Both the position numbers and the translations under genes were made by a program. The notes below the pieces were generated by a model. That model was not told where the DNA came from. It saw only the letters and a program-made list of their open reading frames with translations, and ran no database searches. Source: Candidatus Daviesbacteria bacterium (GTDB lineage: Bacteria > Patescibacteriota > Microgenomatia > Daviesbacterales > UBA10151). Taken from it: 64,000 bases of DNA. Location of the stretch: assembly GCA_028712705.1 (NCBI GenBank), contig JAQTPP010000001.1, positions 81,521 to 145,520 of the forward strand, written 5' to 3'. This document shows, piece after piece, positions 4,302 through 50,759 of the stretch (the stretch's first letter is position 1; each line of letters begins with the position of its first letter).

Positions 4302-5687
4302 ATGCAGAGTCGCACTTTAATTTTAGACTGTATTAGTAAAATAGAAGATGAAGTTAAAATTTGTGGTTGGGTGCAGGTAGTAAGAGATCACGGGAAGATT
4401 CTATTTTTAGATGTTTTGGATAGATCTGGAATCATTCAGGTTGTAGTATCTCCAGACAGTGTCCACCTCGAAGGAGTCAAAGCCCACCTTCGAGGTGAAG
4501 AGTTGCAGGTGCAACGCTACCTGGAAGGTGGATTGCATGCAATACATCCGCAAGATGTAGTTTGTATAACGGGAAAAGTAAATAAACGTCCGGAAAACCT
4601 TATAAACAAAAATATCCCAACAGGCGAGATTGAAATCTCAGCAAAAGAAATTGAAGTTTTATCTAAAGCGCGGGAGTTGCCTTTTGACATGGGCGGTAAA
4701 GATTTGGATTTGCAGCTTCCGACTTTGCTTGATTTTCGCTCCCTTACTTTACGCCACCCAAAAGTCAAAGCCATTTTTAAAGTTCAAGAAAGTTTATTAG
4801 AGGGATTTAGAAAAGCTGCCAAAGATTTGGGATGTACTGAAATTGTAGTGCCGACGATTGTGGCCGGAGCAACAGAAGGCGGTGCGGAAGTTTTTAGAAT
4901 AGACTATTTTGAACACAAAGCCTACCTTTCTCAAAGCCCCCAACTTTACAAACAAATGCTGGTTCCGGTATACGAGCGAGTTTTTGCCATAGCCAAGGCT
5001 TACCGGGCTGAGCCATCAGTGACGACCAGGCATTTGACTGAAAGCACTCAAATGGATGTTGAGATTGGTTTTGTGGAATTTGAAGAGTTACTGGATATTT
5101 TGGAGAGTGTAGCGATTAAGATGTTAAAAATTGCTGAAGAAGAATGTAAAGAGATTTTATCCGAATTTGGAGTGGAGAAAATTGCTTTCGGCAAAATTCC
5201 CAGGCTTACTTTAAGGGAAGCGCAAGATGTAATCTTAAAAGAATTTGGGCGCGATAACAGGAAGGAAAAGGATTTAACTCCGCAAGACGAAGTTGACTTA
5301 TGCAAATGGGCAAAGAAAAGTCACGGTAGTGATTTTGTGACGGTGACACATTTTCCTACTGCTGCCAAACCATTTTACACAATGCCGGATCCGAAAGATC
5401 CGGAATATTCTTTAAGTTATGATCTACTATTTAGGGGGGTAGAAATTATGAGCGGCAGTCAGAGGATTAATGATTATCAACAGTTGGTTGATTCAATCAA
5501 ATCAAGAGGTATGGATCCAAAATCTTTTGAGATGTATTTGCAGGCTTTTAAATTTGGTATGCCTCCGGAAGGTGGATTCTCCTTTGGGTTGGAAAGAATT
5601 ACCATGCATGTTTTGAATTTAGCTAATGTTAGAGAAGCCAGTCTTTTCCCAAGAGATATGGAAAGAGTAGACACCAGGTTGAGATGA
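4302..5687 (+). CDS. aspS: Aspartate--tRNA ligase, archaeal/AspRS2-like class IIb (AsnRS not excluded). The ORF track starts at 4260; the start at 4302 fits an OB-fold N-terminus better.
   Basis: Class II motifs FRIDYFEHKAYLSQSPQLYKQ and GGFSFGLERITM. The C-terminal LFPRDMERV resembles archaeal-type AspRS. Length is about 460 aa with no GAD insertion. Confidence 0.7.
   Translation: MQSRTLILDCISKIEDEVKICGWVQVVRDHGKILFLDVLDRSGIIQVVVSPDSVHLEGVKAHLRGEELQVQRYLEGGLHAIHPQDVVCITGKVNKRPENLINKNIPTGEIEISAKEIEVLSKARELPFDMGGKDLDLQLPTLLDFRSLTLRHPKVKAIFKVQESLLEGFRKAAKDLGCTEIVVPTIVAGATEGGAEVFRIDYFEHKAYLSQSPQLYKQMLVPVYERVFAIAKAYRAEPSVTTRHLTESTQMDVEIGFVEFEELLDILESVAIKMLKIAEEECKEILSEFGVEKIAFGKIPRLTLREAQDVILKEFGRDNRKEKDLTPQDEVDLCKWAKKSHGSDFVTVTHFPTAAKPFYTMPDPKDPEYSLSYDLLFRGVEIMSGSQRINDYQQLVDSIKSRGMDPKSFEMYLQAFKFGMPPEGGFSFGLERITMHVLNLANVREASLFPRDMERVDTRLR
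4465..4497. repeat. 33-nt hairpin element CACCTCGAAGG-AGTCAAAGCCCA-CCTTCGAGGTG inserted in-frame in aspS (encodes VHLEGVKAHLRGE)
   Basis: Perfect 11-bp inverted repeat with a 12-nt loop. A near-identical copy lies at 30305-30338 and a diverged reverse-orientation copy at 27498-27530. Confidence 0.75.
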
Positions 5688-6616
5688 AATACTATTTATA
5701 TTCCGCCGGTTTGATTATTCTGGCAATAATTATCACAACAGCAATCCCATTCGTGGTAGAGCTTAGTGAAAATGAATTAATCAGTTTGGCTATCCCTTTG
5801 AATAATTCAAGCGTTGCCGGTATTCAGAAATATAATATTCCACCGGTTGTTGGCAGTTTACCGGTTCCAATCGTTTCTGCCCGCGCAGTTTTTATTGAGG
5901 ATTTGGCGACCGATACAATTCTTTACCAGAAAGATGCTAATACTCCGTTTCCAATTGCATCTACTACGAAGATTATGACAGCTCTTGTCGGAGTAGAATA
6001 TTTTAAACAAAATTCCATACTAACCATTGGAAGCAGCGCAAATATCCCCGGTTCCCGGGTAGGTTTAGTTTCCGGAGAAAATCTTAGCTTTAGATCGCTG
6101 CTTTACGGTATGCTGTTAAATTCCGGTAATGATGCTGCTTTTGCTTTGGCAGAAAATTATCCGGGTGGAGTTTTGAGTTTTATATCGGCAATGAATAAAA
6201 AAGTTTTAGAGCTAAATTTGCGCAATACTCATTTCGACAACCCTGCAGGCTTTGATAGCCCAAATCATTACTCTTCCGCAGCAGATCTTGCTAAAATTAC
6301 AAAAGAAGCCTTAAAAAATTCCCAACTGGCAAGAATTTTTGCGACTAAAGAAACGAATATAGTTTCTTTAGATAAAAAATATTCCCATCAGTTATTTAAT
6401 CTTAATAAATTACTAACCCAGATTAATGGGGTTTTAGGAATAAAAACCGGTACTACTGATCAAGCTAAAGAGAACTTAGTGACGTTGATTGAAAGGGACT
6501 GGCATCGGGTTTTGATAATAATTCTCGGAAGCAATGACCGGTTTGGCGAAACTACGAGATTAATAGACTGGACTTATACGAATATTATTTGGCCGGAGAC
6601 TGAAACTCTTCGCTGA
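5684..6616 (+). CDS. D-alanyl-D-alanine carboxypeptidase (S11 family, PBP5/6-like), N-terminal TM anchor
   Basis: SxxK motif (ASTTKIMT), SxN motif (LLNSGNDAA) and KTG motif (IKTGTT). ATGA start/stop overlap with aspS. Confidence 0.8.
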   Translation: MKYYLYSAGLIILAIIITTAIPFVVELSENELISLAIPLNNSSVAGIQKYNIPPVVGSLPVPIVSARAVFIEDLATDTILYQKDANTPFPIASTTKIMTALVGVEYFKQNSILTIGSSANIPGSRVGLVSGENLSFRSLLYGMLLNSGNDAAFALAENYPGGVLSFISAMNKKVLELNLRNTHFDNPAGFDSPNHYSSAADLAKITKEALKNSQLARIFATKETNIVSLDKKYSHQLFNLNKLLTQINGVLGIKTGTTDQAKENLVTLIERDWHRVLIIILGSNDRFGETTRLIDWTYTNIIWPETETLR

Positions 6617-15845: not shown

Positions 15846-15927
15846 TGTCATTCTGAGTGATTAGCGAAGAATCTAATTATTTAATCTTTAGATCCTTCGG
15901 TCGTTACACTCCCTCAGGATGACAATG
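15846..15927. repeat. Nested-palindrome MITE-like element (GTCATTCTGAGTG...CACTCCCTCAGGATGAC) between ribD and ribA
   Basis: Outer inverted repeat gtcattctgagtg / cactccctcaggatgac. Inner inverted repeat cgaagaatctaa / ttagatccttcg. Related copies at 2521, 25871 and 38006. Confidence 0.75.
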
Positions 15928-25793: not shown

Positions 25794-25870
25794 ATAAAAG
25801 TTTTGCGCTTCCGTCTTAGCACAATTTAATTGTGAGGCAAAATTGCTCTGGACGTCAAGAGGGAGTTTAC

Positions 25871-25899
25871 TTTTTCTCTGTCATTCTGAAGCATAGCGT
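25871..25899. repeat. Half-copy of the GTCATTCTGAG-family element upstream of the second dacA-like gene
   Basis: gtcattctgaagcatagcgtaagaatctg. Confidence 0.5.
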
Positions 25900-25922
25900 A
25901 AGAATCTGTTATCATTACTGTC

Positions 25923-27274: not shown

Positions 27275-30211
27275 ACCAAAAGAGGCTAAGGTTATTATGC
27301 CTCCGGAAACTATCAGTAAACCGCCAAGAAATTCGTTTGCCGAATTTTTGGGGATTAAATTTTTCTGTTCTTCCAGGATTTTGCTGATATTGATTTGATC
27401 GGAAATATGGTTGGGGTTTTGGAAGGTAACTCCTAAGACGTCCGGCGTAGATAGGATGGAGTTTGATGATTGATTTGTGGTTTCGCTCCTAGAGCTTACC
27501 TCGGAGGAGTCAGAGCCCATCTCCGAGGTGCTAGCTGTACTGGAGGTAGAATTTGATGAGGTACCAGAGGAGATGGTTGAAGTGGGAGTTTGTGTAGGAA
27601 TTGGGGTGGGAGTAGGAGACGGGGGTATAGCAATTTCTATAGTGATGGATTGGGGGATTTCTTCGTTGCCCAGGTTATCAATTGATTTGATTTGTAAAGT
27701 GGTTTTACCCGGAGTAGAAATAATAAACGGATTTGAGTAAATATGTACAGTTTGCCCGTTATCCAAACTATATTCAATTCTTAGTATTCCTGATTCAGTA
27801 TCGTTACCGGTTAAAGTTACAGTAACTGGTTCAGTATAAACCCCTGAAAAATCTTTTGTTCCGGAGATTTGAATGTTGGTAACGGGCGGCGTTTGATCTA
27901 ATGCTGCAGAACCGGTAATTTCGCTGGTAGGACTAATGGGGACATTTATTTCGCTTGACGAATCAGGATAAAAATTAAGCGAGGGAGAAGTATCTAAAGC
28001 AGGATCAAGAGTAAATTCTACTTTGCCAACTTGAGGAACAGCAATGTCTTTATAGATTGTGGTTTTGGATATTTTATCTTGTTTATAGGTCCTTTTTTTG
28101 AGGTTAGTAGTTTTAGAGTTATTGGACGGATTTTTACGAGTTGTTTTTACTTTTACTTTTGCAGCTTTCTTTTTAACAAAAGCATGTTTAGTGTTTCCGG
28201 AAGTAATGCAAGAGACATCCGGAATATTTTCTTCTATTTCTCCTTTGTCATTTAAACCGCAGTGGCGGTTTTGATCATCATATAAATCTAATTCTCCGTC
28301 ATCCAAAGAAATTTGCTCGCCTTCCAAAACAATTCTTTCGTCTTTTACTTCCACAGGGAAAGAATTGTCATCATTTAAAATTGCTTTGACGGTTTGCATA
28401 GCTATGCCGCTGGAACTGACCAGGTCAGAGTGTTTTTGTTCTACATAATAGATTTTGATAGCACCGGAAATATCTAAAGAATCACTTTTTAAAGAGGCGC
28501 TATAAAGCGGAACAGTGCCGTCGCCATTGATAAAAATTTCATCTATTTTAGGGATTATATTAACAGGCCAGGTGATCCACCAAGTTTCATGAATTTGTCC
28601 TAAAGTTGGTTGGCTAGAACCAATGACTTCATAGATTTTAGTCCCATTAGTTTGATTTAATATCGGATCCAGCGAGCTATGGAGTGTTTCTCCAAATACA
28701 AAAACAATCATATTGTAAGCTAGGTTAGAAATGAGAGTTTTAGTTTGATCGTAATCTAGAGAACCAGTAATCTTATTATTATCTATATCGCGGTCATCTT
28801 TAAATGGATAAGGCTGATTCTGACTAGAATTATTATAGAAATCAAAGTAAGTTTTTGATGGTAATAATTGGAAAGCAGTGGGTAGATTCTGAAAAATGTC
28901 TTTCACTTCTGATGCAGGCACTCCTAGATAAAAATCACCCAATATTTGTCTACCTAGTGGTTTGCCATACATAAGAGCTTTAGTAGTATCTACTGCCCCT
29001 AAGTGAGGAACTCCCAGTTCTATCAATTTATTAACCTTAGCAGCTTTACTAGCATCTGAAATATAATACCTAGCTACTAGGCCTCCCATAGAATGGACTA
29101 CCAGATTGACTTGAGATTGACCGGAAGCTGTTTTAGCAGTTTCAATGAGATTATCTAAACTGTCTTTAGTGTTTCTGACATCTTTTCTCCAGTCATATGG
29201 AAAGGTAAAGAAATTTTTACCTTTCTCGTACCCCATTCCGGTAAAAAACGAATCAATATCAGAATATCCAAAAGAAGTTAAGTCTCCTGTTAAACTTAAA
29301 GCAGCCTCTGGGGTTTGCCCATCGGTTTTTAACCGTAAAATATCAAAATAATCATCATTTCCCAGTTCCGCAGCCTTATCCTGATTTACCCAAATCTTTT
29401 CATTGCTGGAATAAGCATGAGAATATGTCCCGCCATGGCCGTCTTGAGCAGACCAAATAATATCCTGAGATGCCTTTATCTCTGACCCGCCAATTCCCGG
29501 AATAAAAATTACCGGTAATCTTGGAGGTGGAGGTGGAGGTGAAGTGTTACTTAAGATAAAATATAAATCATCTTTAGTGCTAGAAAATACATTGCAACCA
29601 GAATTTGAAGTTTGAGAATTCCAGATATATTGAGAAGCGTTACAGAATCCGTTATCAAAAGCATATCTTAAGCCTCCGCCGCTAAATAAATCAGATCCCC
29701 CATGTCCTCCCGGACCATAAGCAGCGCTTGTAAATAATATTTTACCGCTGCCCGCGTTACCATTATTAGCATTGGTTATTAATATTAAGTACCGGTGTCC
29801 AGGGATGAAATTATAATTCCGGCAGGAAAAATCGATGGTAACGTCTTCGTATCCGATTGGGACGCCAGTTGTTGTAAAAGTTAAGCCATCTAATGGGTCA
29901 TTATGATTAGTTCCAGGACAGCCAATTATATATGAATTATTATTCTTGTCGTAGATACGGGTGTTTCTGGTGGTAAAATCAAATTGATTTAGATTGGTTC
30001 GGGAAGTACTGACTCTGAACGTGAAGGAGGATGCGGTGCCGGATAAATTATTTCCTAATTCTTGTAAAGCCCCCCAAACAGTTAGTGGATCGCTCCAAGC
30101 TTGAGTTTGTTCTGCTACAGAAACAGCAGAAATATTAGAAGTTGAGATCACAAAAAGTCCTACTACAAAAGTAAGCCGTATATATTGACGAAATGGCAGT
30201 TTTATATTCAC
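27239..30211 (-). CDS. Large secreted, C-terminally membrane-anchored surface protein with a lipase/alpha-beta-hydrolase domain (990 aa)
   Basis: Signal peptide, beta-rich N-domain and a PPPPPP linker. Lipase nucleophile elbow VVHSMGGLVARYY following PVIFIPGIGGSE. Lys-rich segment, Ig-like region, Pro/Thr/Ser-rich stalk and a C-terminal TM plus KKIPK. Confidence 0.7.
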   Translation of the reverse strand: MNIKLPFRQYIRLTFVVGLFVISTSNISAVSVAEQTQAWSDPLTVWGALQELGNNLSGTASSFTFRVSTSRTNLNQFDFTTRNTRIYDKNNNSYIIGCPGTNHNDPLDGLTFTTTGVPIGYEDVTIDFSCRNYNFIPGHRYLILITNANNGNAGSGKILFTSAAYGPGGHGGSDLFSGGGLRYAFDNGFCNASQYIWNSQTSNSGCNVFSSTKDDLYFILSNTSPPPPPPRLPVIFIPGIGGSEIKASQDIIWSAQDGHGGTYSHAYSSNEKIWVNQDKAAELGNDDYFDILRLKTDGQTPEAALSLTGDLTSFGYSDIDSFFTGMGYEKGKNFFTFPYDWRKDVRNTKDSLDNLIETAKTASGQSQVNLVVHSMGGLVARYYISDASKAAKVNKLIELGVPHLGAVDTTKALMYGKPLGRQILGDFYLGVPASEVKDIFQNLPTAFQLLPSKTYFDFYNNSSQNQPYPFKDDRDIDNNKITGSLDYDQTKTLISNLAYNMIVFVFGETLHSSLDPILNQTNGTKIYEVIGSSQPTLGQIHETWWITWPVNIIPKIDEIFINGDGTVPLYSASLKSDSLDISGAIKIYYVEQKHSDLVSSSGIAMQTVKAILNDDNSFPVEVKDERIVLEGEQISLDDGELDLYDDQNRHCGLNDKGEIEENIPDVSCITSGNTKHAFVKKKAAKVKVKTTRKNPSNNSKTTNLKKRTYKQDKISKTTIYKDIAVPQVGKVEFTLDPALDTSPSLNFYPDSSSEINVPISPTSEITGSAALDQTPPVTNIQISGTKDFSGVYTEPVTVTLTGNDTESGILRIEYSLDNGQTVHIYSNPFIISTPGKTTLQIKSIDNLGNEEIPQSITIEIAIPPSPTPTPIPTQTPTSTISSGTSSNSTSSTASTSEMGSDSSEVSSRSETTNQSSNSILSTPDVLGVTFQNPNHISDQINISKILEEQKNLIPKNSANEFLGGLLIVSGGIITLASFGLLATFLKKIPK
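27498..27530. repeat. Reverse-orientation diverged copy of the 33-nt CACCTCG...CGAGGTG hairpin element, in-frame in the lipase gene stalk region (encodes TSEMGSDSSEVSS)
   Basis: The reverse complement reads CACCTCGGAGATGGGCTCTGACTCCTCCGAGGTA. Confidence 0.6.
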
Positions 30212-30304: not shown

Positions 30305-30338
30305 CACCTCGAAGGAGTCAAAGCCCACCTTCGAGGTG
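30305..30338. repeat. Intergenic copy of the 33-nt hairpin element CACCTCGAAGGAGTCAAAGCCCACCTTCGAGGTG, preceded by a duplicated TTCACCTCG
   Basis: Identical to the aspS-internal copy. Located 14 nt upstream of the cyclophilin ATG. Confidence 0.75.
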
Positions 30339-34164: not shown

Positions 34165-34961
34165 TTCCGCCCCAAGGGTACAAAAATATCTAAATATCCG
34201 CAGGTGTCAATACAAATCCACCCCAAGGGTGGACACGGCTGTCAGTTTAGTCTTCAACATCTAATAGTTGGTGTTTTATTAATTCCAATTTCTGGGCATA
34301 ATCAACTTGGTCTAGAACAAATTGCTGATAGTGTTTGGATGATTTGAAAAGACATAGGATAGCTTCTTTATTACAAATTCCGTCGGTATCACTCTCAATG
34401 TATTCCCTATAAGAAGACCAGCGATATTGATTTAGATCTTTTACCAAAAATGAAGCAATTGGATTTAAATGGATGTAACGGGAAGCATGGCTTAATTGCT
34501 CGTCAGATTCTATAAGTACTGCCTTGAATTCTCCTTGTAGCAGAGGACCAACACGGTTATATTTTACATTGTAATATTTAGTATAACTGTTGCTTAGTTT
34601 GCTAATAAATTCTGTAATTCCACCATCTTTTAACTGCTTTATTAGGAAATGAAAATGATTTGACATGAGGCAATAACAGATTACTTCAACTATTTTTTTA
34701 CTTGAATCAGGTTTGAAAATTGAACCAGCGAGAAATTTAGAAAGTTTTGGCTTGGGTCCTGCAAGCTGGTAGTAACACATTGTTTTAATGAGTCGTGAAT
34801 AATCCCAACTTTTTTCAAAAACACTTCTTTTTTCTACACCACGATTGTAAATGTGGTAATATTGCCCGTTTACAAATGGAAAAATTCTAGAAGGCATCTG
34901 AAGCTAGCATAGCTTAAATATCCGCAGGTGTCAATACCAATCCACCCCAAGGGTGGACATT
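34165..34961 (-). mobile_element. RayT-like HUH transposase unit flanked by about 45-bp direct repeats carrying a TCCACCC-CAA-GGGTGGA hairpin
   Basis: Repeats at 34191-34235 and 34917-34961 (aaatatccgcaggtgtcaatacaaatccaccccaagggtggaca). A degenerate extra copy lies at 34167-34182. The unit is inserted between nrdJ and the cobalamin adenosyltransferase gene. Confidence 0.7.
34247..34897 (-). CDS. REP-associated tyrosine transposase-like protein (COG1943 / IS200-like Y1 HUH)
   Basis: YYHIYNRGVEKRSVF, HUH motif CYCLMSNHFHFLI, GPLLQGEFKAVLIESDEQLSHASRYIHLNP and the catalytic-Tyr region YRWSSY. Confidence 0.8.
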   Translation of the reverse strand: MPSRIFPFVNGQYYHIYNRGVEKRSVFEKSWDYSRLIKTMCYYQLAGPKPKLSKFLAGSIFKPDSSKKIVEVICYCLMSNHFHFLIKQLKDGGITEFISKLSNSYTKYYNVKYNRVGPLLQGEFKAVLIESDEQLSHASRYIHLNPIASFLVKDLNQYRWSSYREYIESDTDGICNKEAILCLFKSSKHYQQFVLDQVDYAQKLELIKHQLLDVED

Positions 34962-34993
34962 CTATTATAGACATGGTTTGTTAAAATCAGCTC

Positions 34994-35527
34994 ATGAATA
35001 AAGAAAAAGGTTTGGTTATTTTATATACCGGTGAGGGGAAAGGGAAAACCACAGCTGCCTTGGGTTTGGTACTCCGGGCCGTGGGTCATAAGAAAAAGTG
35101 CTTGGTAGTTCAGTTTGGCAAAGCTTCTTTCACTGGTGAACTGGAAGCAGTAAAAAAACTTAAAACTGATGTTAAATTTATCCAGGGCGGTAAAGGGTTT
35201 GTTAAAATTTTAGGGGACAAGCTGCCCTTAAAAGAACATAAAAAAGCTGCAAAGAAAACATTTGATATATTATATAAGGAAATTATTAGTGGTAAATGGA
35301 ATGTAGCGGTGGCAGATGAAATAATTGGAGCAGTCTCATCCGGACTTCTTCCCGAGAGCTTAGTTGTGAAATTAATTACAGATAAACCTGAGAAGCTGGA
35401 TTTAGTATTAACCGGTCACCATGCGTCAAAGAAATTAATTGGGGTGGTTGATTTAGTAACCGAAATGCGGAGAGTAAAACATCCTTACCAAAAAGGAATT
35501 CTGGCAAAAAAGGGTATTGACTTTTAG
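34994..35527 (+). CDS. Cob(I)yrinic acid a,c-diamide / cob(I)alamin adenosyltransferase (CobA/CobO/BtuR family)
   Basis: GEGKGKTTAALGLVLRAVGHKKKCLVVQFGKASFTGE P-loop signature of PF02572. Confidence 0.8.
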   Translation: MNKEKGLVILYTGEGKGKTTAALGLVLRAVGHKKKCLVVQFGKASFTGELEAVKKLKTDVKFIQGGKGFVKILGDKLPLKEHKKAAKKTFDILYKEIISGKWNVAVADEIIGAVSSGLLPESLVVKLITDKPEKLDLVLTGHHASKKLIGVVDLVTEMRRVKHPYQKGILAKKGIDF

Positions 35528-35565
35528 CACTCATTGCACTAAACTGCTAATAGTTTTAAGAAAAT

Positions 35566-37998
35566 ATGGTTGATTTCATTAAATCGATTACGCCAACTTC
35601 AACAGAACCTTTAAAGTTGAAACCGACTATGCCGGTTGGACCGCTTCGTGATACGGTAATTTTTCCCGGCAACTCAGTCCCGATTATATCCGGCAGACCA
35701 AGGTCTAAGGCCGCGCTAGATGCAGTATGGGGTAGCGATAAATTGATAGTTTTTGTCACTCAAAAAAATTCCCGGATTGAAGACCCAACAGAAAAAGACC
35801 TGTATAAAGTTGGTACTGTTTGTCTGATAAGACGGGTAGTTAAAAATCCTGAAGGAGAATACACACTGCAGGCAGAAGGGCTTTCCAGGGTATACTTAAA
35901 AAGTTTTACCAAGATAGAGCCTTATTTAGAAGCGGAAATAGAAGAAATCCCCGAACTTTACGAAAAAAGCGAACAAACAGAAGCATTGGTTAGAACTGTT
36001 AGAGAACAAATGAAACGGTTTCTGGAGTTGGGCGGTAACCCATTTTTTGACCAAAGCAATTTCGCCAACTGGTCCCTTTTTACCTATAGCGATGATCCAA
36101 ATCAGTTGGTAAACTCGATAACCCAATCTATAGATTTTAAAACCATAGACAAACAACAGATCTTAGAAATGGTTTCTGCAGGAGAAAGGTTGCAACGGCT
36201 ATCCGAGCTTTTGGCAAAAGAGATAAGAATTCTGGAAATATCACAGAAAATTTCATCGCAAACTCAAGAGCGTGTTTCCAAAATGACCAAGGAAGCGATT
36301 CTGCGGGAACAGATGAAGAGCATTGAAGAAGAGCTGGGCGGGGCAGATACGGAGCATCAGGAAATTAAAGAATTTGAACTCAAAATCAAAAAGAGCGGCA
36401 TGCCGAAAGAGGTTTTGGAAAGGGCAAAGAAAGAACTGGGGAGGTTGGCAAAGATGTCTTCCTATAACCCGGAAGCAGGTTATATCAGAAATTATCTGGA
36501 ATGGTTGACAGATTTACCTTGGAAGCATAGTAAAAAAGGTAAAGTTGATTTGAAAAAAGCAGAAGAGATTTTAGAAGAGGATCATTACGGTTTAAAGAAA
36601 GTAAAAGAGCGTATTCTTGAGTATTTGGCCGTTTACAAGCTTGCAGGCAAAATGAGGGGACCGATCCTTTGTTTCGTCGGCCCGCCGGGTACAGGTAAAA
36701 CTTCCATCGGAAAATCTATTGCCAGAGCTTTGAGCCGGAAATTTATCAAAGTATCTCTGGGTGGAATACGCGATGAGGCGGAAATAAGAGGACACCGCAG
36801 AACTTATGTCGGCTCTATGCCAGGCAGGATTATCCAGGGAATAAAACAGGCCGGCACCACCAACCCGGTTTTTATGCTGGATGAGATTGATAAAATTGGG
36901 ACAGACTACAGAGGTGATCCTTCGGCAGCGCTTCTTGAGGCGCTTGATCCTGAACAAAACGAAGGCTTTTCCGATCATTATTTGGAAGTATCATACGATC
37001 TTTCCAATGTTATGTTTATTACAACTGCAAATATTTTGGACACAATTCCACCGGCACTTCGGGACAGGCTTGAAGTGATCAGATACCCGGGTTACACGGA
37101 AGATGAAAAGTTCCATATTGCCAAAAAATTCTTAATTCCCAAGCAAATGCAAAATCATGGGTTCAAAAAGGACCAGATCGAGTTTCAAGATGAAGCTATT
37201 TATTCAATTATTAGAGGTTACACAAGAGAGGCCGGAGTTAGAAATTTGGAAAGAGAAATTTCAGCGGTCCTAAGAAAGGTGGCAAGAAAAATAGCAGAAG
37301 GAAATGGTGAGGTGAAGAAATTTATAATCCTTTCTAAGGATATCCATAGTTTTCTGGGACCAATCAAATTCTTACCAATTTTGGCTGAAAAGATGGATGA
37401 AATCGGGATGGTTACCGGTCTTTCCGTGACAGAGGCCGGAGGAGAGATTTTGTTTATTGAAGTCACTTTAATGCCCGGAAAAGGCAATTTGCTTTTGACA
37501 GGGCAACTGGGGGATGTGATGAAAGAATCTGGTCAAGCAGCAATGTCTTATGTTAGGGCTCACTGGACTGATTTGGGATTGCCGGAGCGGTTTTTCCAAA
37601 AGGTTGATGTGCATGTTCATGTTCCGGAAGGAGCAATTCCAAAAGATGGCCCCTCGGCAGGGATAGCTCTTACAACTGCCATTGTTTCCGCATTCACAAA
37701 GATTCCGGTCCATAAAGATATAGCCATGACCGGTGAGGTTACGTTAAGAGGACGAGTTTTGGAAATAGGTGGATTCAAAGAAAAAGTTTTGGCAGCTCAC
37801 CGGGCCGGAGTAAAAGTTATAATTGCGCCGGCTGATAATGAAAAAGATTTGGAAGATATTCCGGATTATGTACAAAAGGATCTTAAATTTATCTTTGTCA
37901 AACATATGGATGATGTTTTAAGAGTTGCGCTGGTGAGACCTCCTCAACCAGCAACCAGAAAAAGAATCCCAATTTCTCCTCCGGCCTATTTAGCATAA
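35566..37998 (+). CDS. lon: ATP-dependent protease Lon
   Basis: Lon N-domain, AAA+ Walker A (GPPGTGKTS) and the protease Ser site ([20 protein letters not shown]). Confidence 0.9.
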
Positions 37999-38005
37999 AG
38001 TTTTT

Positions 38006-38102
38006 GTCATTCCGAGTGATTAGCGAGGAGTCCCGATTAAATCGGGATTGCCGCGTCGCGGAGTTTACACTGAGCGAAGTCGAAGCGCTCCTCGCAATGA
38101 CA
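38006..38102. repeat. Nested-palindrome MITE-like element (TTGTCATTCCGAG...CTCGCAATGACAA) between lon and hppA
   Basis: Outer inverted repeat ttgtcattccgagtgattagcgaggag / cgctcctcgcaatgacaa. Inner hairpin cccgattaaatcggg. Same family as 15846-15927. Confidence 0.7.
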
Positions 38103-38175
38103 ACAATACTAGTCTCCCCCTTGACTTAGTTTATAATGCTGGTGTAAATTTTAAGGTACTGCTCCGAAAGACTTC

Positions 38176-40182
38176 ATGGATTTCATATTAAATAATGTCA
38201 ATTTAATAATTTGGACTGCCGTGGCGGCCGCTCTCCTGTATGGCTTTTGGCTGATTGTGGAAATTTTAAGGAAAGATTCCGGTGATGAGAAAATGCGGGA
38301 AATCGCCTCGGCGATTCAGGTTGGAGCTGGGGCATATTTACAAAGGCAATACAAAGTTGTTGCTTTGGTTGCAGCTGTTCTGGCAGTCTTAATATATTAT
38401 ATTTTAGGTCAGAATACCGCAATTGGATTTATAATCGGCGCTTTTCTTTCGGCTCTGGCCGGGTTTATCGGTATGAGTGTGGCAGTGAGGGCTAATGTTC
38501 GGGTGGCAGAGGAGGCCAAGAAAGGTTTATCCGAGGCTTTTATTTTGGCATATAAAGGCGGGGCAGTGACGGGATTTCTGGTAGTAGGTTTGGCGCTGGC
38601 AGCAGTTTTTGGATTTTATCAGTATACTGGCGGGGATTTAAAATCTCTGGTTGGACTTGGTTTTGGCGGATCCTTAATTTCTGTTTTTGCCCGTCTTGGT
38701 GGGGGCATTTTTACCAAAGGGGCAGATGTGGGGGCGGATTTGGTGGGGAAGATTGAAGCAGGAATACCTGAAGATGACCCCAGAAATCCGGCAGTAATTG
38801 CCGATAATGTGGGGGATAATGTTGGGGATTGTGCCGGAATGGCAGCAGATATTTTTGAAACTTATATTGTGACCGCCATTGCCTCTATGATTTTAGGTCA
38901 ACTCTTGTTTCCGGGATACAGCAATGCCGTGATGTTTCCCCTTTTAATCCTTGCTATGGGAATCCTGGCTTCGATTGTAGGATCGTTCTTTGTTAAATTG
39001 ACGGGTAAAAACATTATGAAAGCTCTTTATAAAGGGATGATAGCAACTAGCGCTGTCTGCGCAGTTTTATTTTATCCTGTTGTCTACAGCGTTATGGGAG
39101 ACAATGGCATCATAAGCGTTTTTAATTTATACCTGGCATCTTTAATCGGAATACTGGTGACTGCGGGAATGGTACTCATAACCGAATATTATACAGGTGC
39201 GGAGTACTCCCCTGTCCAAAATTTAGGATTGGCTTCCAAGACAGGTCATGCTACCAATATTATTGCGGGACTTGCTTTGTCTATGCGTTCAACTTTTGCT
39301 CCGGTAATTCTAATTTCCACAGCGGTATTATTAAGTTTTATGTTTGCGGGGCTTTATGGAATTGCTCTGGCCGGTGCGGCAATGCTTTCTTTAGCCGGAA
39401 TTGTAGTGGCAATAGATGCATTCGGTCCGATTACAGATAATGCAGGCGGAATCGCAGAGATGGCAAATCTTTCTTCCAAAGTTCGCGATGTGACAGATCC
39501 GCTGGATGCTGTTGGGAATACGACTAAGGCTGTGACTAAAGGTTATGCGATTGCTTCGGCAGCGCTGGCAGCAATGGTTTTGTTTACAGCATATGCTCAG
39601 GAATTTTCTTCTCAAGGTTCAGAGCTACAGTTTTCATTATCAGACCCTAATGTTTTGGTAGGGCTTTTTATTGGAGGTTCGCTTCCTTATCTTTTTGCCT
39701 CCTATGCAATGGAAGCTGTAGGGCGGGCCGGAGGAGCAGTGGTTGAGGAAGTCAGGCGTCAGTTTAGAACTATCAAAGGCATTATGGAGGGTAAAGCCAA
39801 ACCTGATTATGCAAAGTGTGTTGATATTGTGACTCAATCGGCGCAAAAAGAGATGCTGGTGCCTGCTTTAATTCCTGTTTTGTCGCCGGTCATTGTGGGA
39901 TTTGCCCTGGGTCCGGTCGCTTTGGGTGGGATGCTGGTGGGATCAATTGTGACAGGGATTTTTGTAGCGGTTTCTATGACAACAGGTGGCGCTGCCTGGG
40001 ATAATGCCAAAAAGTATATTGAGAGTGGTAAATTTGGCGGGAAGGGTTCTGAAACCCATAAAGCAGCAGTCACAGGAGATACAGTTGGCGACCCTTACAA
40101 AGACACCGCCGGTCCTGCCATTAATCCAATGATTAAAGTTGTAAATATTGTGGCTTTACTTTTAGTTCCCTTCTTGAGATAA
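38176..40182 (+). CDS. hppA: Membrane-bound proton/sodium-translocating pyrophosphatase
   Basis: [37 protein letters not shown] and the C-terminal [14 protein letters not shown] motifs. About 15 TM helices. Confidence 0.9.
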
Positions 40183-40183
40183 T

Positions 40184-40519
40184 TTGCAAATTATGGTTGT
40201 TGAATACGGACTACATGGATCTTGGGCTGAAAGACAAAAGCAAACTACGGGAGTAGTTGAGCCTGGTAATACGCTAACTATTTATATTTCAGAAAATAGA
40301 ATATTACATATTCTATGCGACGGAGAAGATAACGGAGGTAGGATTTTTGTTTCTGAACCAAATACTGTAGAATTGCGAGCTTCGCTAACACCTCGTGGAC
40401 CTTTGGTTGGTATTTGTGGCTTAAGAGCTAAAATGGAATTAGATAGGATGTGTAGTGCCGAAATTAGAGATGGCGGAGAAGTTGTTGCAACCATAAAACA
40501 CGTACCCTCACAAAGATAA
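40184..40519 (+). CDS. Hypothetical protein (111 aa), 2 nt downstream of hppA
   Basis: ORF only, with no recognised domain. Adjacent to the second RayT unit. Confidence 0.35.
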   Translation: MQIMVVEYGLHGSWAERQKQTTGVVEPGNTLTIYISENRILHILCDGEDNGGRIFVSEPNTVELRASLTPRGPLVGICGLRAKMELDRMCSAEIRDGGEVVATIKHVPSQR

Positions 40520-40564
40520 ATATACACATACCCGCATATTTACATGGAACTTATTGAGAAGATG

Positions 40565-41300
40565 CTTACAAACCCGGTTTGCAAGTTCAAAGTTCTTCAT
40601 CAATAGTGGTATGCTTAATTAATTCCAGCTTTGCTCCATAATCTGCCTGATCCAAGACAAATTTTTCATAAGCTTTTGGAGATTTGAAAAAATTTAATAT
40701 CTCCTCTTTGTTGATTGCAAGATTATCGCGCATGTTTATGTATTCTAAATAAGAAGACCAGGGATAGAGTTTTAGATCTTTTACAATCAGTGCTACTAAT
40801 GGGTTTAGATGGATATATCTAGATACGTGAATAAGTTGTTCATCTGTTTCTATTCTAACAGCCTTAAAGAGAGCCTGAAAAATGGGCCCTTGAGAGTTAT
40901 GCTTTATGTTTCTATATTTTGTATAGCTGTGGACAAATTTTCTAATTAGTTCAGAAATACCTCCATCATGTATTTGTTTAACCAGTAGATGAAAGTGATT
41001 AGGCATTAAACAGTAAGCTATGATTTCAACAATCTTTTTAGTTTCATCTATGGGAAAAGTTTTTTGCTGTCTGTGTACCGAAAATCGCGGTTTAGGATTT
41101 GCTATCTGGTAATAAAATAAAGTCTTGGCAAAACGATCATAATCTCTTTTATCTAAAAATGTCTGCTGTTTATTTATCCCCCTATTATAGAGGTGATAGT
41201 AGTCTCCATTGATAAAAGGAATTATTCTGTAGGGCATATAATTATTACCTTAGCTTTACAAACCCGGTTTGTCAATACGAATTCAAACCGGGTTTGCAGG
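40565..41300 (-). mobile_element. Second RayT-like HUH transposase unit flanked by CAAACCCGGTTTG-type palindromes
   Basis: acaaacccggtttgcaag abuts the stop codon (40568-40585). ctttacaaacccggtttgtcaatacgaattcaaaccgggtttgcagg lies at 41254-41300. The linker TGTCAATACGAATTC resembles the GTCAATACAAATCC in the first unit's repeats. Confidence 0.7.
40587..41237 (-). CDS. REP-associated tyrosine transposase-like protein (second paralog)
   Basis: YYHLYNRGINKQQTF, HUH AYCLMPNHFHLLV, GPIFQALFKAVRIETDEQLIHVSRYIHLNP and YPWSSY. About 55% identical to the copy at 34247-34897. Confidence 0.8.
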   Translation of the reverse strand: MPYRIIPFINGDYYHLYNRGINKQQTFLDKRDYDRFAKTLFYYQIANPKPRFSVHRQQKTFPIDETKKIVEIIAYCLMPNHFHLLVKQIHDGGISELIRKFVHSYTKYRNIKHNSQGPIFQALFKAVRIETDEQLIHVSRYIHLNPLVALIVKDLKLYPWSSYLEYINMRDNLAINKEEILNFFKSPKAYEKFVLDQADYGAKLELIKHTTIDEEL

Positions 41301-49718: not shown

Positions 49719-50759
49719 CTATTTTCCTTGTCTTTGGCGGATGAGATCAGCTGCAGAAGTTGCAGACGGAGCGCCTCCTACTTGCCCAAAGCTTGCTGAA
49801 CCTGTGGCAGTTGAGGGAGAAGGTTGCGCAGAAGTTGTGGCAATTGGTAGAGTAGGTTTAACTTGAGTTGTTTGCGGCGTGGTCGTTGCCGGCAAACTTG
49901 TTGTCCCCTTAGATGGTTGGCCAATGCCAAGTATAAAATATGCGGAAGCGCCTATTACTAAGATTAGCAGTCCTCCTCCTACACCAATTAGCCATTTTGA
50001 TATACCTTTACGGTTTTCGACAGAAAGCGTTGATACTTCAGGATTTGTAGTTGGGCTTGTGGGAGATGTAACTAATGTTTCAGGCGCAGATTGAATCAAA
50101 TCTTGCTGCGGGGTATTAGTTATTAGATGAGAAAGATCTGTCGGAGCAGCTTCCTGGTTATTCATCCAGCTTGGCTGTGAGGGATTTGCAGGTGTTTCAC
50201 CCCATGGATTGTCTAGCGGTGAAGTAGCAGGAGAGGGTTCATTGATGCTGCCGGCAGGGGTAGCAGCCGGAGGAGTGAAAGTAGGGGTTGGTTCCGGTTG
50301 AGTCGGAATTTGCGGCTGTGGAATTGGTTCCGGTTCGCTCGGAACTGGAGGGGTCCAGGTAGAAGGTTGTGGATTTGACCACGGATTTGATACTGCTGGT
50401 TCCGGTAGTACTGTAGGTTGGGTCGGCGGTTGGACTGGGGATGGAGGAGTCCAAGCTGAGCTAAGATCAAGTCCGGCATTTCCTGATACAGGCGGGTTGA
50501 CACCCGGATTGGTTTGGGTTGTATCTTGAGCCCATGGAGAAGGAGAAGCTTGAGCGGGGTTTGATCCCATAAAGGATGTAGCAGGTTCTGAAACTGGAGG
50601 CCAACTTGGTGTCGGAGACGGTGATGGCGGTGGAGCTGGCATCTGGTTTGGTTCAACAATTGGTTGCGGTTGGGTAGGGGTTGGTTCCGGTTTGCTCGGA
50701 ACTGGTTCCGGTATCGGATTCAAGTTAGCGGATGAATTTTGGTTATTAGGGTTATCCAT
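49719..50759 (-). CDS. Proline/threonine-rich bitopic membrane protein (346 aa), low complexity
   Basis: A PxP-rich N-terminal about 240 aa, one TM helix (WLIGVGGGLLILVIGASAYFILG) and a Thr/Ser-rich C-terminal region. Confidence 0.5.
   Translation of the reverse strand: MDNPNNQNSSANLNPIPEPVPSKPEPTPTQPQPIVEPNQMPAPPPSPSPTPSWPPVSEPATSFMGSNPAQASPSPWAQDTTQTNPGVNPPVSGNAGLDLSSAWTPPSPVQPPTQPTVLPEPAVSNPWSNPQPSTWTPPVPSEPEPIPQPQIPTQPEPTPTFTPPAATPAGSINEPSPATSPLDNPWGETPANPSQPSWMNNQEAAPTDLSHLITNTPQQDLIQSAPETLVTSPTSPTTNPEVSTLSVENRKGISKWLIGVGGGLLILVIGASAYFILGIGQPSKGTTSLPATTTPQTTQVKPTLPIATTSAQPSPSTATGSASFGQVGGAPSATSAADLIRQRQGK

Follow-up and report, generated by a model that had tools for sequence, protein, structure and literature searches.

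The window analysed here is a stretch of 64,000 nucleotides (64 kb) of a Candidatus Daviesbacteria bacterium contig (JAQTPP010000001.1, positions 81,521 to 145,520), in which two diverged genes encoding Y1 HUH proteins, copy 1 and copy 2 (products p1 and p2, respectively), each lie between short hairpin repeats of their own. Judged by motifs, profiles and modelled fold, both proteins are members of TnpA_Y1 class 2, i.e. RAYTs (tyrosine transposases associated with repetitive extragenic palindromes, REPs) in the broad sense, and not TnpA proteins of IS200/IS605 insertion sequences (ISs). We consider it likely that each locus is a cassette resembling a REPtron or TIRtron, that is, a vertically inherited Y1 HUH gene, present as a single copy per type and bracketed by a paralog-specific module of ~45 nt composed of a GC-rich hairpin and an adjacent box.

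Class of the proteins and their flanking modules

An earlier note on this DNA, made from its letters alone, had pointed to the two open reading frames (ORFs). Both are present, with the HUH motifs NHFHFLI and NHFHLLV, and the identity between the two copies, put at ~55% in the note, was measured as 58% (124/215, full length). Both proteins exceed the gathering cutoff of the Pfam Y1_Tnp profile (30.3 and 30.6 bits; cutoff 23), and the sole NCBIfam match is NF047646 REP_Tyr_transpos (47.5 and 55.7 bits for p1 and p2, respectively). An alignment of 63 homologs revealed that NHFH (residues 80-83) and R-Y-x-H-L-N-P (140-146) are invariant, with x being isoleucine in at least 90% of the sequences, and that W-S-S-Y is near-invariant. 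When the family profile was compared with all PDB sequences, the top match was 4ER8, the E. coli TnpA_REP, with the HUH, YIxxNP and W/F-S motifs aligned; a search with a single sequence gave no relevant match, 4ER8 being reached by the family profile alone. The same structure ranked first in a Foldseek search with an AlphaFold2 (AF2) model of the protein (pLDDT 90.9; E 1.1e-6, TMt 0.68), followed by the TnpA proteins of IS608 (4.2e-5) and ISDra2.

The active site of E. coli RayT is composed of H59/H61, Y115, N119 and H123 (PMC3479197). In the profile alignment to 4ER8, Y141 and N145 line up with Y115 and N119 of RayT, and the catalytic residues of p1 assigned from this alignment are therefore H81, H83, Y141 and N145. 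The earlier note had placed the catalytic tyrosine within YxWSSY, a motif that reads YRWSSY and YPWSSY in the two proteins. This assignment was ruled out by the 4ER8 alignment, the known RayT active site and the published class motifs: the tyrosine is Y141 in SRYIHLNP, while YxWSSY corresponds to the "SS" tail.

Class 2 proteins carry the signature Y---NP, and those of class 1 (IS200) carry Y---Q and have a length of ~150 aa (Quentin et al. 2018, Table 1, PMC6006769). Subclass 2.1 is characterized by NH[YF]H, FQ at the W position, Y[IV]HLNP, an SS tail and a median length of 238 aa (PMC6006769). Protein p1 fits this description, with NHFH, LQ (consensus FQ), YIHLNP, WSSY and 216 aa. Features of IS200/IS605 elements are missing, since the signature is Y---NP instead of Y---Q, the proteins have 216 aa, there is no tnpB gene and no near-identical copies were found.

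For BLASTP comparison, a reference set of RAYT and TIRYT sequences was rebuilt from Additional file 5 of Di Nocera et al. 2013 (PMC3733652). The best matches were the TIRYTs gbm_2474, dau_2153, rba_2408 and hch_1378 (E 1e-22 to 1e-26), and the canonical RAYTs scored far more weakly (pfs_3939, 1e-12; E. coli b228, 0.03 and 2e-4). The TIRYT alignments end near residue 176, and the C-terminus beyond forms a short helical tail in the AF2 model. TIRYTs and TIRtrons were described by Di Nocera et al. 2013 (PMC3733652) and overlap largely with TnpA_Y1 subclass 2.1 and RAYT Group 1 (PMC5581495). By motifs and BLASTP, TIRYT / subclass 2.1 / Bertels Group 1 is thus the closest described group. The earlier note's choice of the RayT class over IS200/IS605 is borne out by Y---NP, by 4ER8 as the best match in both profile and Foldseek searches, by the lack of tnpB and by the divergence of the paralogs; its RayT label holds at the level of the class and not for a canonical RayT with GTAG-type REPs, the proteins being nearer to TIRYT / subclass 2.1.

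The copy 1 gene is bracketed by a 45-nt direct repeat (34191-34235 and 34915-34959) whose copies share 44 of 45 positions, in agreement with the ~45-bp repeats noticed before, and which contains the hairpin TCCACCC-CAA-GGGTGGA. This hairpin has five matches in the window, compared with 0.09 expected by chance. Its downstream copy (34217-34233) has a terminator-like score on the gene strand, and the downstream module shares both sequence and extension with the solo modules of metagenome contigs described below. A degenerate hairpin at 34166-34182 is probably the remnant of a tandem module; similar remnants are present in the related loci L105 and L106. On both sides of copy 2 we found the palindrome CAAACCCGGTTTG (40569-40581 and 41259-41271), which had likewise been reported in the note, as well as its inverted form at 41284-41296. 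There are eight matches of this palindrome in the window (1.6 expected), and the two upstream palindromes, as single-stranded DNA (ssDNA), form a single REPIN-like hairpin of 14 bp (-15 kcal/mol, z = -6.3). An Rfam scan at gathering thresholds identified two tRNAs only and had zero matches in the copy 1/copy 2 region.

The association of gene and hairpin holds across the family. In a set of 87 non-redundant genes, the 110 nt upstream were screened for perfect hairpins (stem of at least 5 bp) that recur in the 110 nt downstream. A common perfect hairpin was found in the gene's own flanks in 52 of 87 cases and in the flanks of mismatched partners in ~1 of 87, in line with the proposal that each gene is bracketed by a cognate hairpin of its own. 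Stem sequences vary from one subfamily to another. In an earlier pass, the orientation of the repeats was direct in 32 of the 49 genes scored, inverted in 14 and symmetric in three. Many members (L022, L030, L035, L041) have true 40-nt terminal inverted repeats comprising hairpin and box, matching the description of TIRtrons. In the copy 2 ortholog of L157, all three palindromes read CAATCCCGGATTG in place of the CAAACCCGGTTTG of the window, the A>T and T>A changes compensating each other.

The two repeat types share the linker GTCAATACNAATYC, which occurs exactly at 34206, 34930 and 41271; its middle base is A, C or G (A or G according to the note). At a tolerance of two mismatches, the window shows no enrichment of the linker pattern (seven matches, four expected). 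On the gene strand GTCAATAC reads GTATTGAC and contains TTGACA, followed by 17 nt, TATGCT, 8 nt and the ATG of p1. Among 91 family genes examined, an exact TTGAC starts 33-40 nt ahead of the ATG in 45, and TAnnnT lies 16-18 nt after TTGAC in 38. Across the family the -10 box ends 5-9 nt ahead of the ATG, which implies a leaderless mRNA, and 6-8 nt separate the end of the hairpin from the -35 box downstream. For the most part, the shared linker is the -35 promoter hexamer of the gene itself (the reverse complement of TTGACA), and this is enough to explain why it is common to loci with different stems. The earlier note had read it as a common recognition or cleavage context; the shared sequence is real, and a purely recognition- or cleavage-related role is largely rejected, the -35 box accounting for the sharing. 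The bases following TTGA are either a repeat of the hairpin's left arm or part of a second hairpin, and the box at this position co-varies with the hairpin and stays conserved in solo copies. Putative recognition sites therefore flank the -35 box and extend over the spacer, an arrangement suggestive of autoregulation.

Age of the loci and dispersal of the copy 1 module

A HMMER search of 1.84 billion representatives at 50% identity returned at least 1,526 clusters of the family at E ≤ 1e-30 and 16,700 at E ≤ 1e-10. A genome scan confirmed at least 576 relatives; among the matches listed, nearly all came from Patescibacteria, also called the candidate phyla radiation (CPR), and a few were labelled Omnitrophota, DPANN-like archaea and others. 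Two diverged copies lie within 20 kb of each other in 12 of the loci fetched for comparison (given here as L numbers). Many contigs with these Y1 genes (those of L008, L010, L013, L014, L016 and others) have clearly CPR-type gene content and are titled "uncultured Gammaproteobacteria" (third-party annotation, TPA, "binchicken"); these labels look wrong.

The earlier note had singled out the synteny of the nrdJ-cobO region for comparison with relatives. Copy 1 orthologs (64-84% identical) are kept beside cobO in the window, L001, L005, L008, L009, L010, L012, L015 and many metagenome contigs. A block composed of a response regulator gene, the p2 gene, hppA, lon and cobO has the same spacing in L015 and L106 as in the window; L015 also carries the copy 1 ortholog beside cobO, and L106 ends just past cobO. 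The p1-p2 spacing is ~6 kb in the window and the same in L015 and L106, while L157 and L158 retain the copy 2 part of the block. At both loci dN/dS is 0.04-0.10, with dS ranging from 1.2 to saturated, as expected under purifying selection. Gene order, kept in at least eight genomes or contigs, and divergence indicate that both loci are old and vertically inherited across Daviesbacteria/Microgenomates.

The 45-nt module is kept nearly unchanged in L001, L008 and L125 while dS of the gene exceeds 1. Between the window and L001 it has one difference, whereas the rest of the spacer is ~60% identical (estimated by eye), and the module is therefore under constraint or being homogenised. In the RIFCSPHIGHO2_02_FULL_41 lineage, the cobO-nrdJ gap contains other genes in place of the Y1 gene, and the copy 1 ortholog with both repeats is located between genes encoding EamA and an F420 ligase. 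On occasion, whole cassettes thus relocate.

Metagenomes were scanned with the pattern CCACCCTTGGGGTGG-N6-7-TTGACACC, representing the copy 1 module. The scan yielded 69 loci; ~24 of the loci are gene-linked and ~36 are unique copies without a nearby Y1 gene, situated in many contexts. The solo copies share a near-invariant 44-nt core, TCCACCCTTGGGGTGGA-N5-6-TTGACACCTGCGGATTTTT, and are mostly intergenic, with most of them antisense to both neighbours. One of them, in L106, lies between hppA and lon within the conserved block, where the corresponding gap of L015 is 57 nt long and empty. The copy 1 module constitutes a small repeat family. We also considered that solo modules act as mobile promoters; this was ruled out, as only 4 of 36 retain the -10 box and most face the 3′ end of a convergent neighbour. 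Arrays were found for other members of the family: L042 has five copies of a ~106-nt element within 10.8 kb, two of which flank the gene, and L061 contains clusters resembling bacterial interspersed mosaic elements (BIMEs).

About one quarter of the solo copy 1 modules (L088, L089, L095, L106, L115, L142, L147, L151, L152) have a sequence resembling the left arm, TCCACC(C), 3-12 nt upstream of the hairpin, which could reflect a target preference, nested insertion or a further half-site. In L118 (84-190) and L152 (~6340-6440, minus strand) a copy 1-type module adjoins a module with another hairpin (GCACACACCGGGTGTGTGC + TAGACACCTCAGG), forming a composite BIME-like array of elements from different paralogs. 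In the 1.79 Mb searched, the only other occurrence of the copy 2 palindrome flanks a copy 2-like gene in L132 (361-1000; 67% identical to p2), bordered by CAAACCCGGTTTG. This gene aligns in two frames (residues 1-163 and 166-214) and may be a frameshifted pseudogene or an assembly error.

Proposed mechanism, rival explanations and known systems

DNA binding, cleavage, mobilisation and autoregulation are inferred here by analogy. As in E. coli RayT and IS200/IS605 TnpA, the protein would bind its own hairpin in single-stranded DNA and cleave nearby through Y141, with the metal held by H81, H83 and N145. It could also rejoin strands, and in doing so would now and then insert a copy of the module at another intergenic site or, less often still, copy the entire cassette. 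The sigma-70-type promoter of the gene is part of the upstream module, with the second half-site or hairpin covering the spacer, and the protein, when bound to this module, would therefore probably be a repressor of its own gene. The downstream hairpin possibly serves as a terminator. A wider generalization is tentative and, in our estimate, somewhat improbable as a whole: throughout the CPR, a very large clade of the subclass 2.1 type would possess cognate REP-like elements derived from the promoter-bearing 5′ end, and the enzyme would autoregulate through the very site that it mobilises, seeding small populations of repeats, some of them in frame within essential genes, in genomes of ~1 Mb.

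Direct flanking repeats, such as those of the copy 1 ortholog, are reminiscent of IS200/IS605 ends, and the relocated cassette of RIFCSPHIGHO2_02_FULL_41, with its Y1-free cobO-nrdJ gap, as well as the high abundance of the family in metagenomes, would also agree with an active minimal IS200-like IS of ~770 bp, in which a Y1 gene between same-strand end hairpins moves as a whole by peel-and-paste ssDNA transposition. We regard this explanation as unlikely. The window and the 20-kb loci contain no near-identical copies, paralogs of the same genome being 30-60% identical, and orthologs occupy the same loci although dS exceeds 1. The protein signature and length and the lack of tnpB, as given above, do not fit such an element, the downstream repeat is inverted in 14 of the 49 scored genes, and solo modules greatly outnumber relocated cassettes.

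An even less probable explanation is that of a domesticated DNA-binding or nicking factor that acts on its own flanks only, with solo modules being decaying relics. The location of the promoter between recognition sites, the retention of a module in L098 after gene loss and the lack of solo copies in the window are in line with it. Against it stand the ~36 contexts with a near-invariant 44-nt core: each paralogous cassette has a different hairpin, and a single common core would not be expected among relics of lost paralogs. The hppA-lon site, which carries a module in L106 and has a gap of 57 nt in L015, and the multi-copy arrays of L042 and L061, are likewise difficult to reconcile with it. 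Least probable of all, and by a wide measure improbable, is that these are ordinary promoter- or terminator-linked hairpins unrelated to the protein. Although the copy 1 downstream hairpin is terminator-like and the upstream module contains a promoter, the same hairpin is found on both sides and changes with the protein (52/87 versus ~1/87), the upstream hairpin is situated in a region of divergent promoters, which would not call for a terminator, the changes in L157 are compensated and concerted in all copies, and solo copies mostly lack the -10 box (4/36).

The cassette interpretation, which we prefer to these rivals, has several results weighing against it. In the 64-kb window, neither the copy 1 nor the copy 2 hairpin occurs beyond the two cassettes, so the earlier claim that RayT-driven dispersal shapes this genome is unsupported for p1 and p2; repeat dispersal is seen for the copy 1 module in related genomes (~36 solo copies, L106 versus L015) and not for the copies of this window. 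Solo modules are known from metagenome contigs and are not tied to a gene-carrying genome, and the long contigs never contained more than one stretch (~1 exact match per 180 kb), a low density that we liken to the modest 16-mer counts of Bertels Group 1, i.e. RAYT Group 1 (Bertels et al. 2017, PMC5581495). No solo copy 2 hairpin was found in the 1.79 Mb searched. In L098 a truncated module lies beside cobO, where a short-chain dehydrogenase/reductase (SDR) gene replaces the Y1 gene, so that gene loss may have left some of the solo copies behind as relics. At the level of the protein, the NF047646 scores are below the equivalog cutoff of 80, and a Pfam search (E ≤ 0.1) detected nothing beyond Y1_Tnp, with neither a helix-turn-helix (HTH) nor a Bac_DnaA_C domain in the C-terminal ~50 aa. 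Finally, the GT[AG]G foot of canonical REPs is missing, the hairpin feet (foot/stem) being ATG/TCCACCC or CT/TCCACCC in copy 1 and CTG/CAAACC in copy 2. This 5′ foot defines subclasses 2.2, 2.4, 2.5, 2.7 and 2.8 only (PMC6006769).

Among known systems, TIRYTs and TIRtrons share with the loci described here a set of motifs (the N-terminus MP.R...YH.xNRG, CLMPNH[FV]H, (F/L)Q, Y[IV]..NP and WSS) and a length of ~215-240 aa, together with low copy number, diverged paralogs, gene-specific flanking repeats (some of them self-complementary) and small solo families. In contrast to TIRtrons, the modules consist of short perfect hairpins and a box, are often direct rather than inverted and have no GGGGWSAS motif, and the proteins end in a short helical C-terminus of ~50 aa without HTH/Bac_DnaA_C, where the described subclass 2.1 has an HTH-like domain (Bac_DnaA_C, HTH_23 or HTH_28). 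For subclass 2.1, the largest of the subclasses, no REP-like structures were reported, and non-IS TnpA_Y1 genes were found mostly in large genomes (Quentin et al. 2018, PMC6006769), whereas the hosts in question are CPR bacteria with genomes of ~1 Mb. E. coli RayT (TnpA_REP, YafM; 4ER8) is the nearest solved structure by profile and fold, with aligned HUH, tyrosine and asparagine metal-site residues, and the E. coli REPtron, with one copy of the gene between cognate palindromes, has the same arrangement; its palindromes also recur at other places in the E. coli genome. However, identity to RayT is ~14-25%, the 5′ GTAG foot is absent, the stems are perfect (6-8 bp, with 3-nt loops) and not bulged, solo copies are few and not in the hundreds, and the NF047646 equivalog cutoff is not reached. 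The TnpA proteins of IS200, IS608 and ISDra2 have the same Y1 HUH fold, and the IS200/IS605 group resembles copy 1 in its subterminal hairpins on the same strand at both ends and a promoter within the left end; it differs in the features of signature, length, tnpB and copy identity already listed, and in that the present loci are syntenic and old.

Most work on RAYT/REP systems has been done in Proteobacteria whose genomes are large. With the loci presented here, a system of a known kind, rather than a new one, is extended to a new bacterial lineage. As variants of this kind, they have hairpins that are short and perfect, an orientation that is frequently direct, a leaderless promoter embedded in the module, a short C-terminus and hosts with very small genomes. 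The analysis shows a very large clade of the subclass 2.1 type in CPR/Patescibacteria, with several diverged paralogs per ~1-Mb genome, each having its own co-evolving hairpin module. The location of the promoter within the module makes autoregulation directly testable, and the simple perfect hairpins offer a tractable system for studying how Y1 enzymes read DNA. In genome annotation, such genes should not be labelled active IS200 transposases.

Coordinates, neighbouring genes and other repeats

Features of the two cassettes are summarized in Table 1. As the note had stated, copy 1 is located between nrdJ and a cobalamin adenosyltransferase gene, which was confirmed by the domains of its neighbours: nrdJ (class II ribonucleotide reductase domains) and a divergently transcribed CobA/CobO/BtuR gene. 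Copy 2 has a response regulator gene on one side and, on the other, a 111-aa ORF situated behind the H+-PPase gene.

Table 1. Positions of the copy 1 and copy 2 genes and of their flanking elements in the window.
Feature	Position	Strand	Description
Copy 1 (p1)	34247-34897	minus	Y1 HUH gene, intact ORF, 216 aa
Copy 1 residues			H81-F82-H83, HUH; Y141 and N145 in RYIHLNP; WSSY tail motif, 160-163 (profile alignment to 4ER8)
Copy 2 (p2)	40587-41237	minus	Y1 HUH gene, intact ORF, 216 aa
Copy 1 upstream module	34915-34959	minus	hairpin 34941-34957, 6 nt, -35 box TTGACA (34934-34929), conserved box CACCTGCGGATATTT
Copy 1 -10 box TATGCT	34911-34906	minus	8 nt ahead of ATG
Copy 1 downstream module	34191-34235	minus	direct repeat of the upstream module; hairpin 34217-34233
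Degenerate third hairpin TCCGCCCCAAGGGTACA	34166-34182	minus	directly 3′ of the nrdJ stop codon
Copy 2 upstream module	41256-41296	minus	inverted 13-nt palindromes 41284-41296 and 41259-41271 around the -35 box TTGACA (41275-41270)
Copy 2 downstream repeat	40566-40581	minus	TTACAAACCCGGTTTG (plus-strand reading); 16-nt direct repeat of the promoter-proximal palindrome

The window contains a further hairpin type, CACCTYSRAGGTG, with the consensus CACCT(C/T)(C/G)(G/A)AGGTG, at 682-721, 977-989, 4464-4497 (and 4518-4530), 27497-27530 and 30305-30338. It is found mainly as inverted doublets, each folding into a single long hairpin (-12 kcal/mol), and the same 34-mer stands at 4464 and 30305. Three of the doublets are in frame within genes encoding a CCA-adding enzyme, an archaeal-type aspartyl-tRNA synthetase (AspRS; ~16 aa extra compared with 3NEL) and a 990-aa protein. 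The in-frame palindromes that the note had cited for RayT-driven repeat dispersal are present and are of a hairpin type different from the p1 and p2 repeats. Hairpins of this third type flank other Y1 family members, in L016, L019, L041 and L042; no cognate Y1 gene for the in-frame doublets was found within the 64-kb window.

A separate palindromic element of ~80-100 nt, TGTCATTC(C/T)GAG...CGCAATGACA, is present at 456-537, 15846-15924, ~25868-25906 and 38005-38102. One copy is in frame in the ORF of the CCA-adding enzyme, and another fills the lon-hppA gap. Related repeats in L157 (11510-11540, 11815-11845 and 12165-12205) lie around a gene for a 96-aa GIY-YIG protein located between cobO and nrdJ, a hint that this element is associated with small GIY-YIG genes. 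Another repeat, GTAGGGGTTGGTTCCGGTT..CTCGGAA, has three copies within 420 nt (50281-50308, 50317-50344 and 50674-50701).

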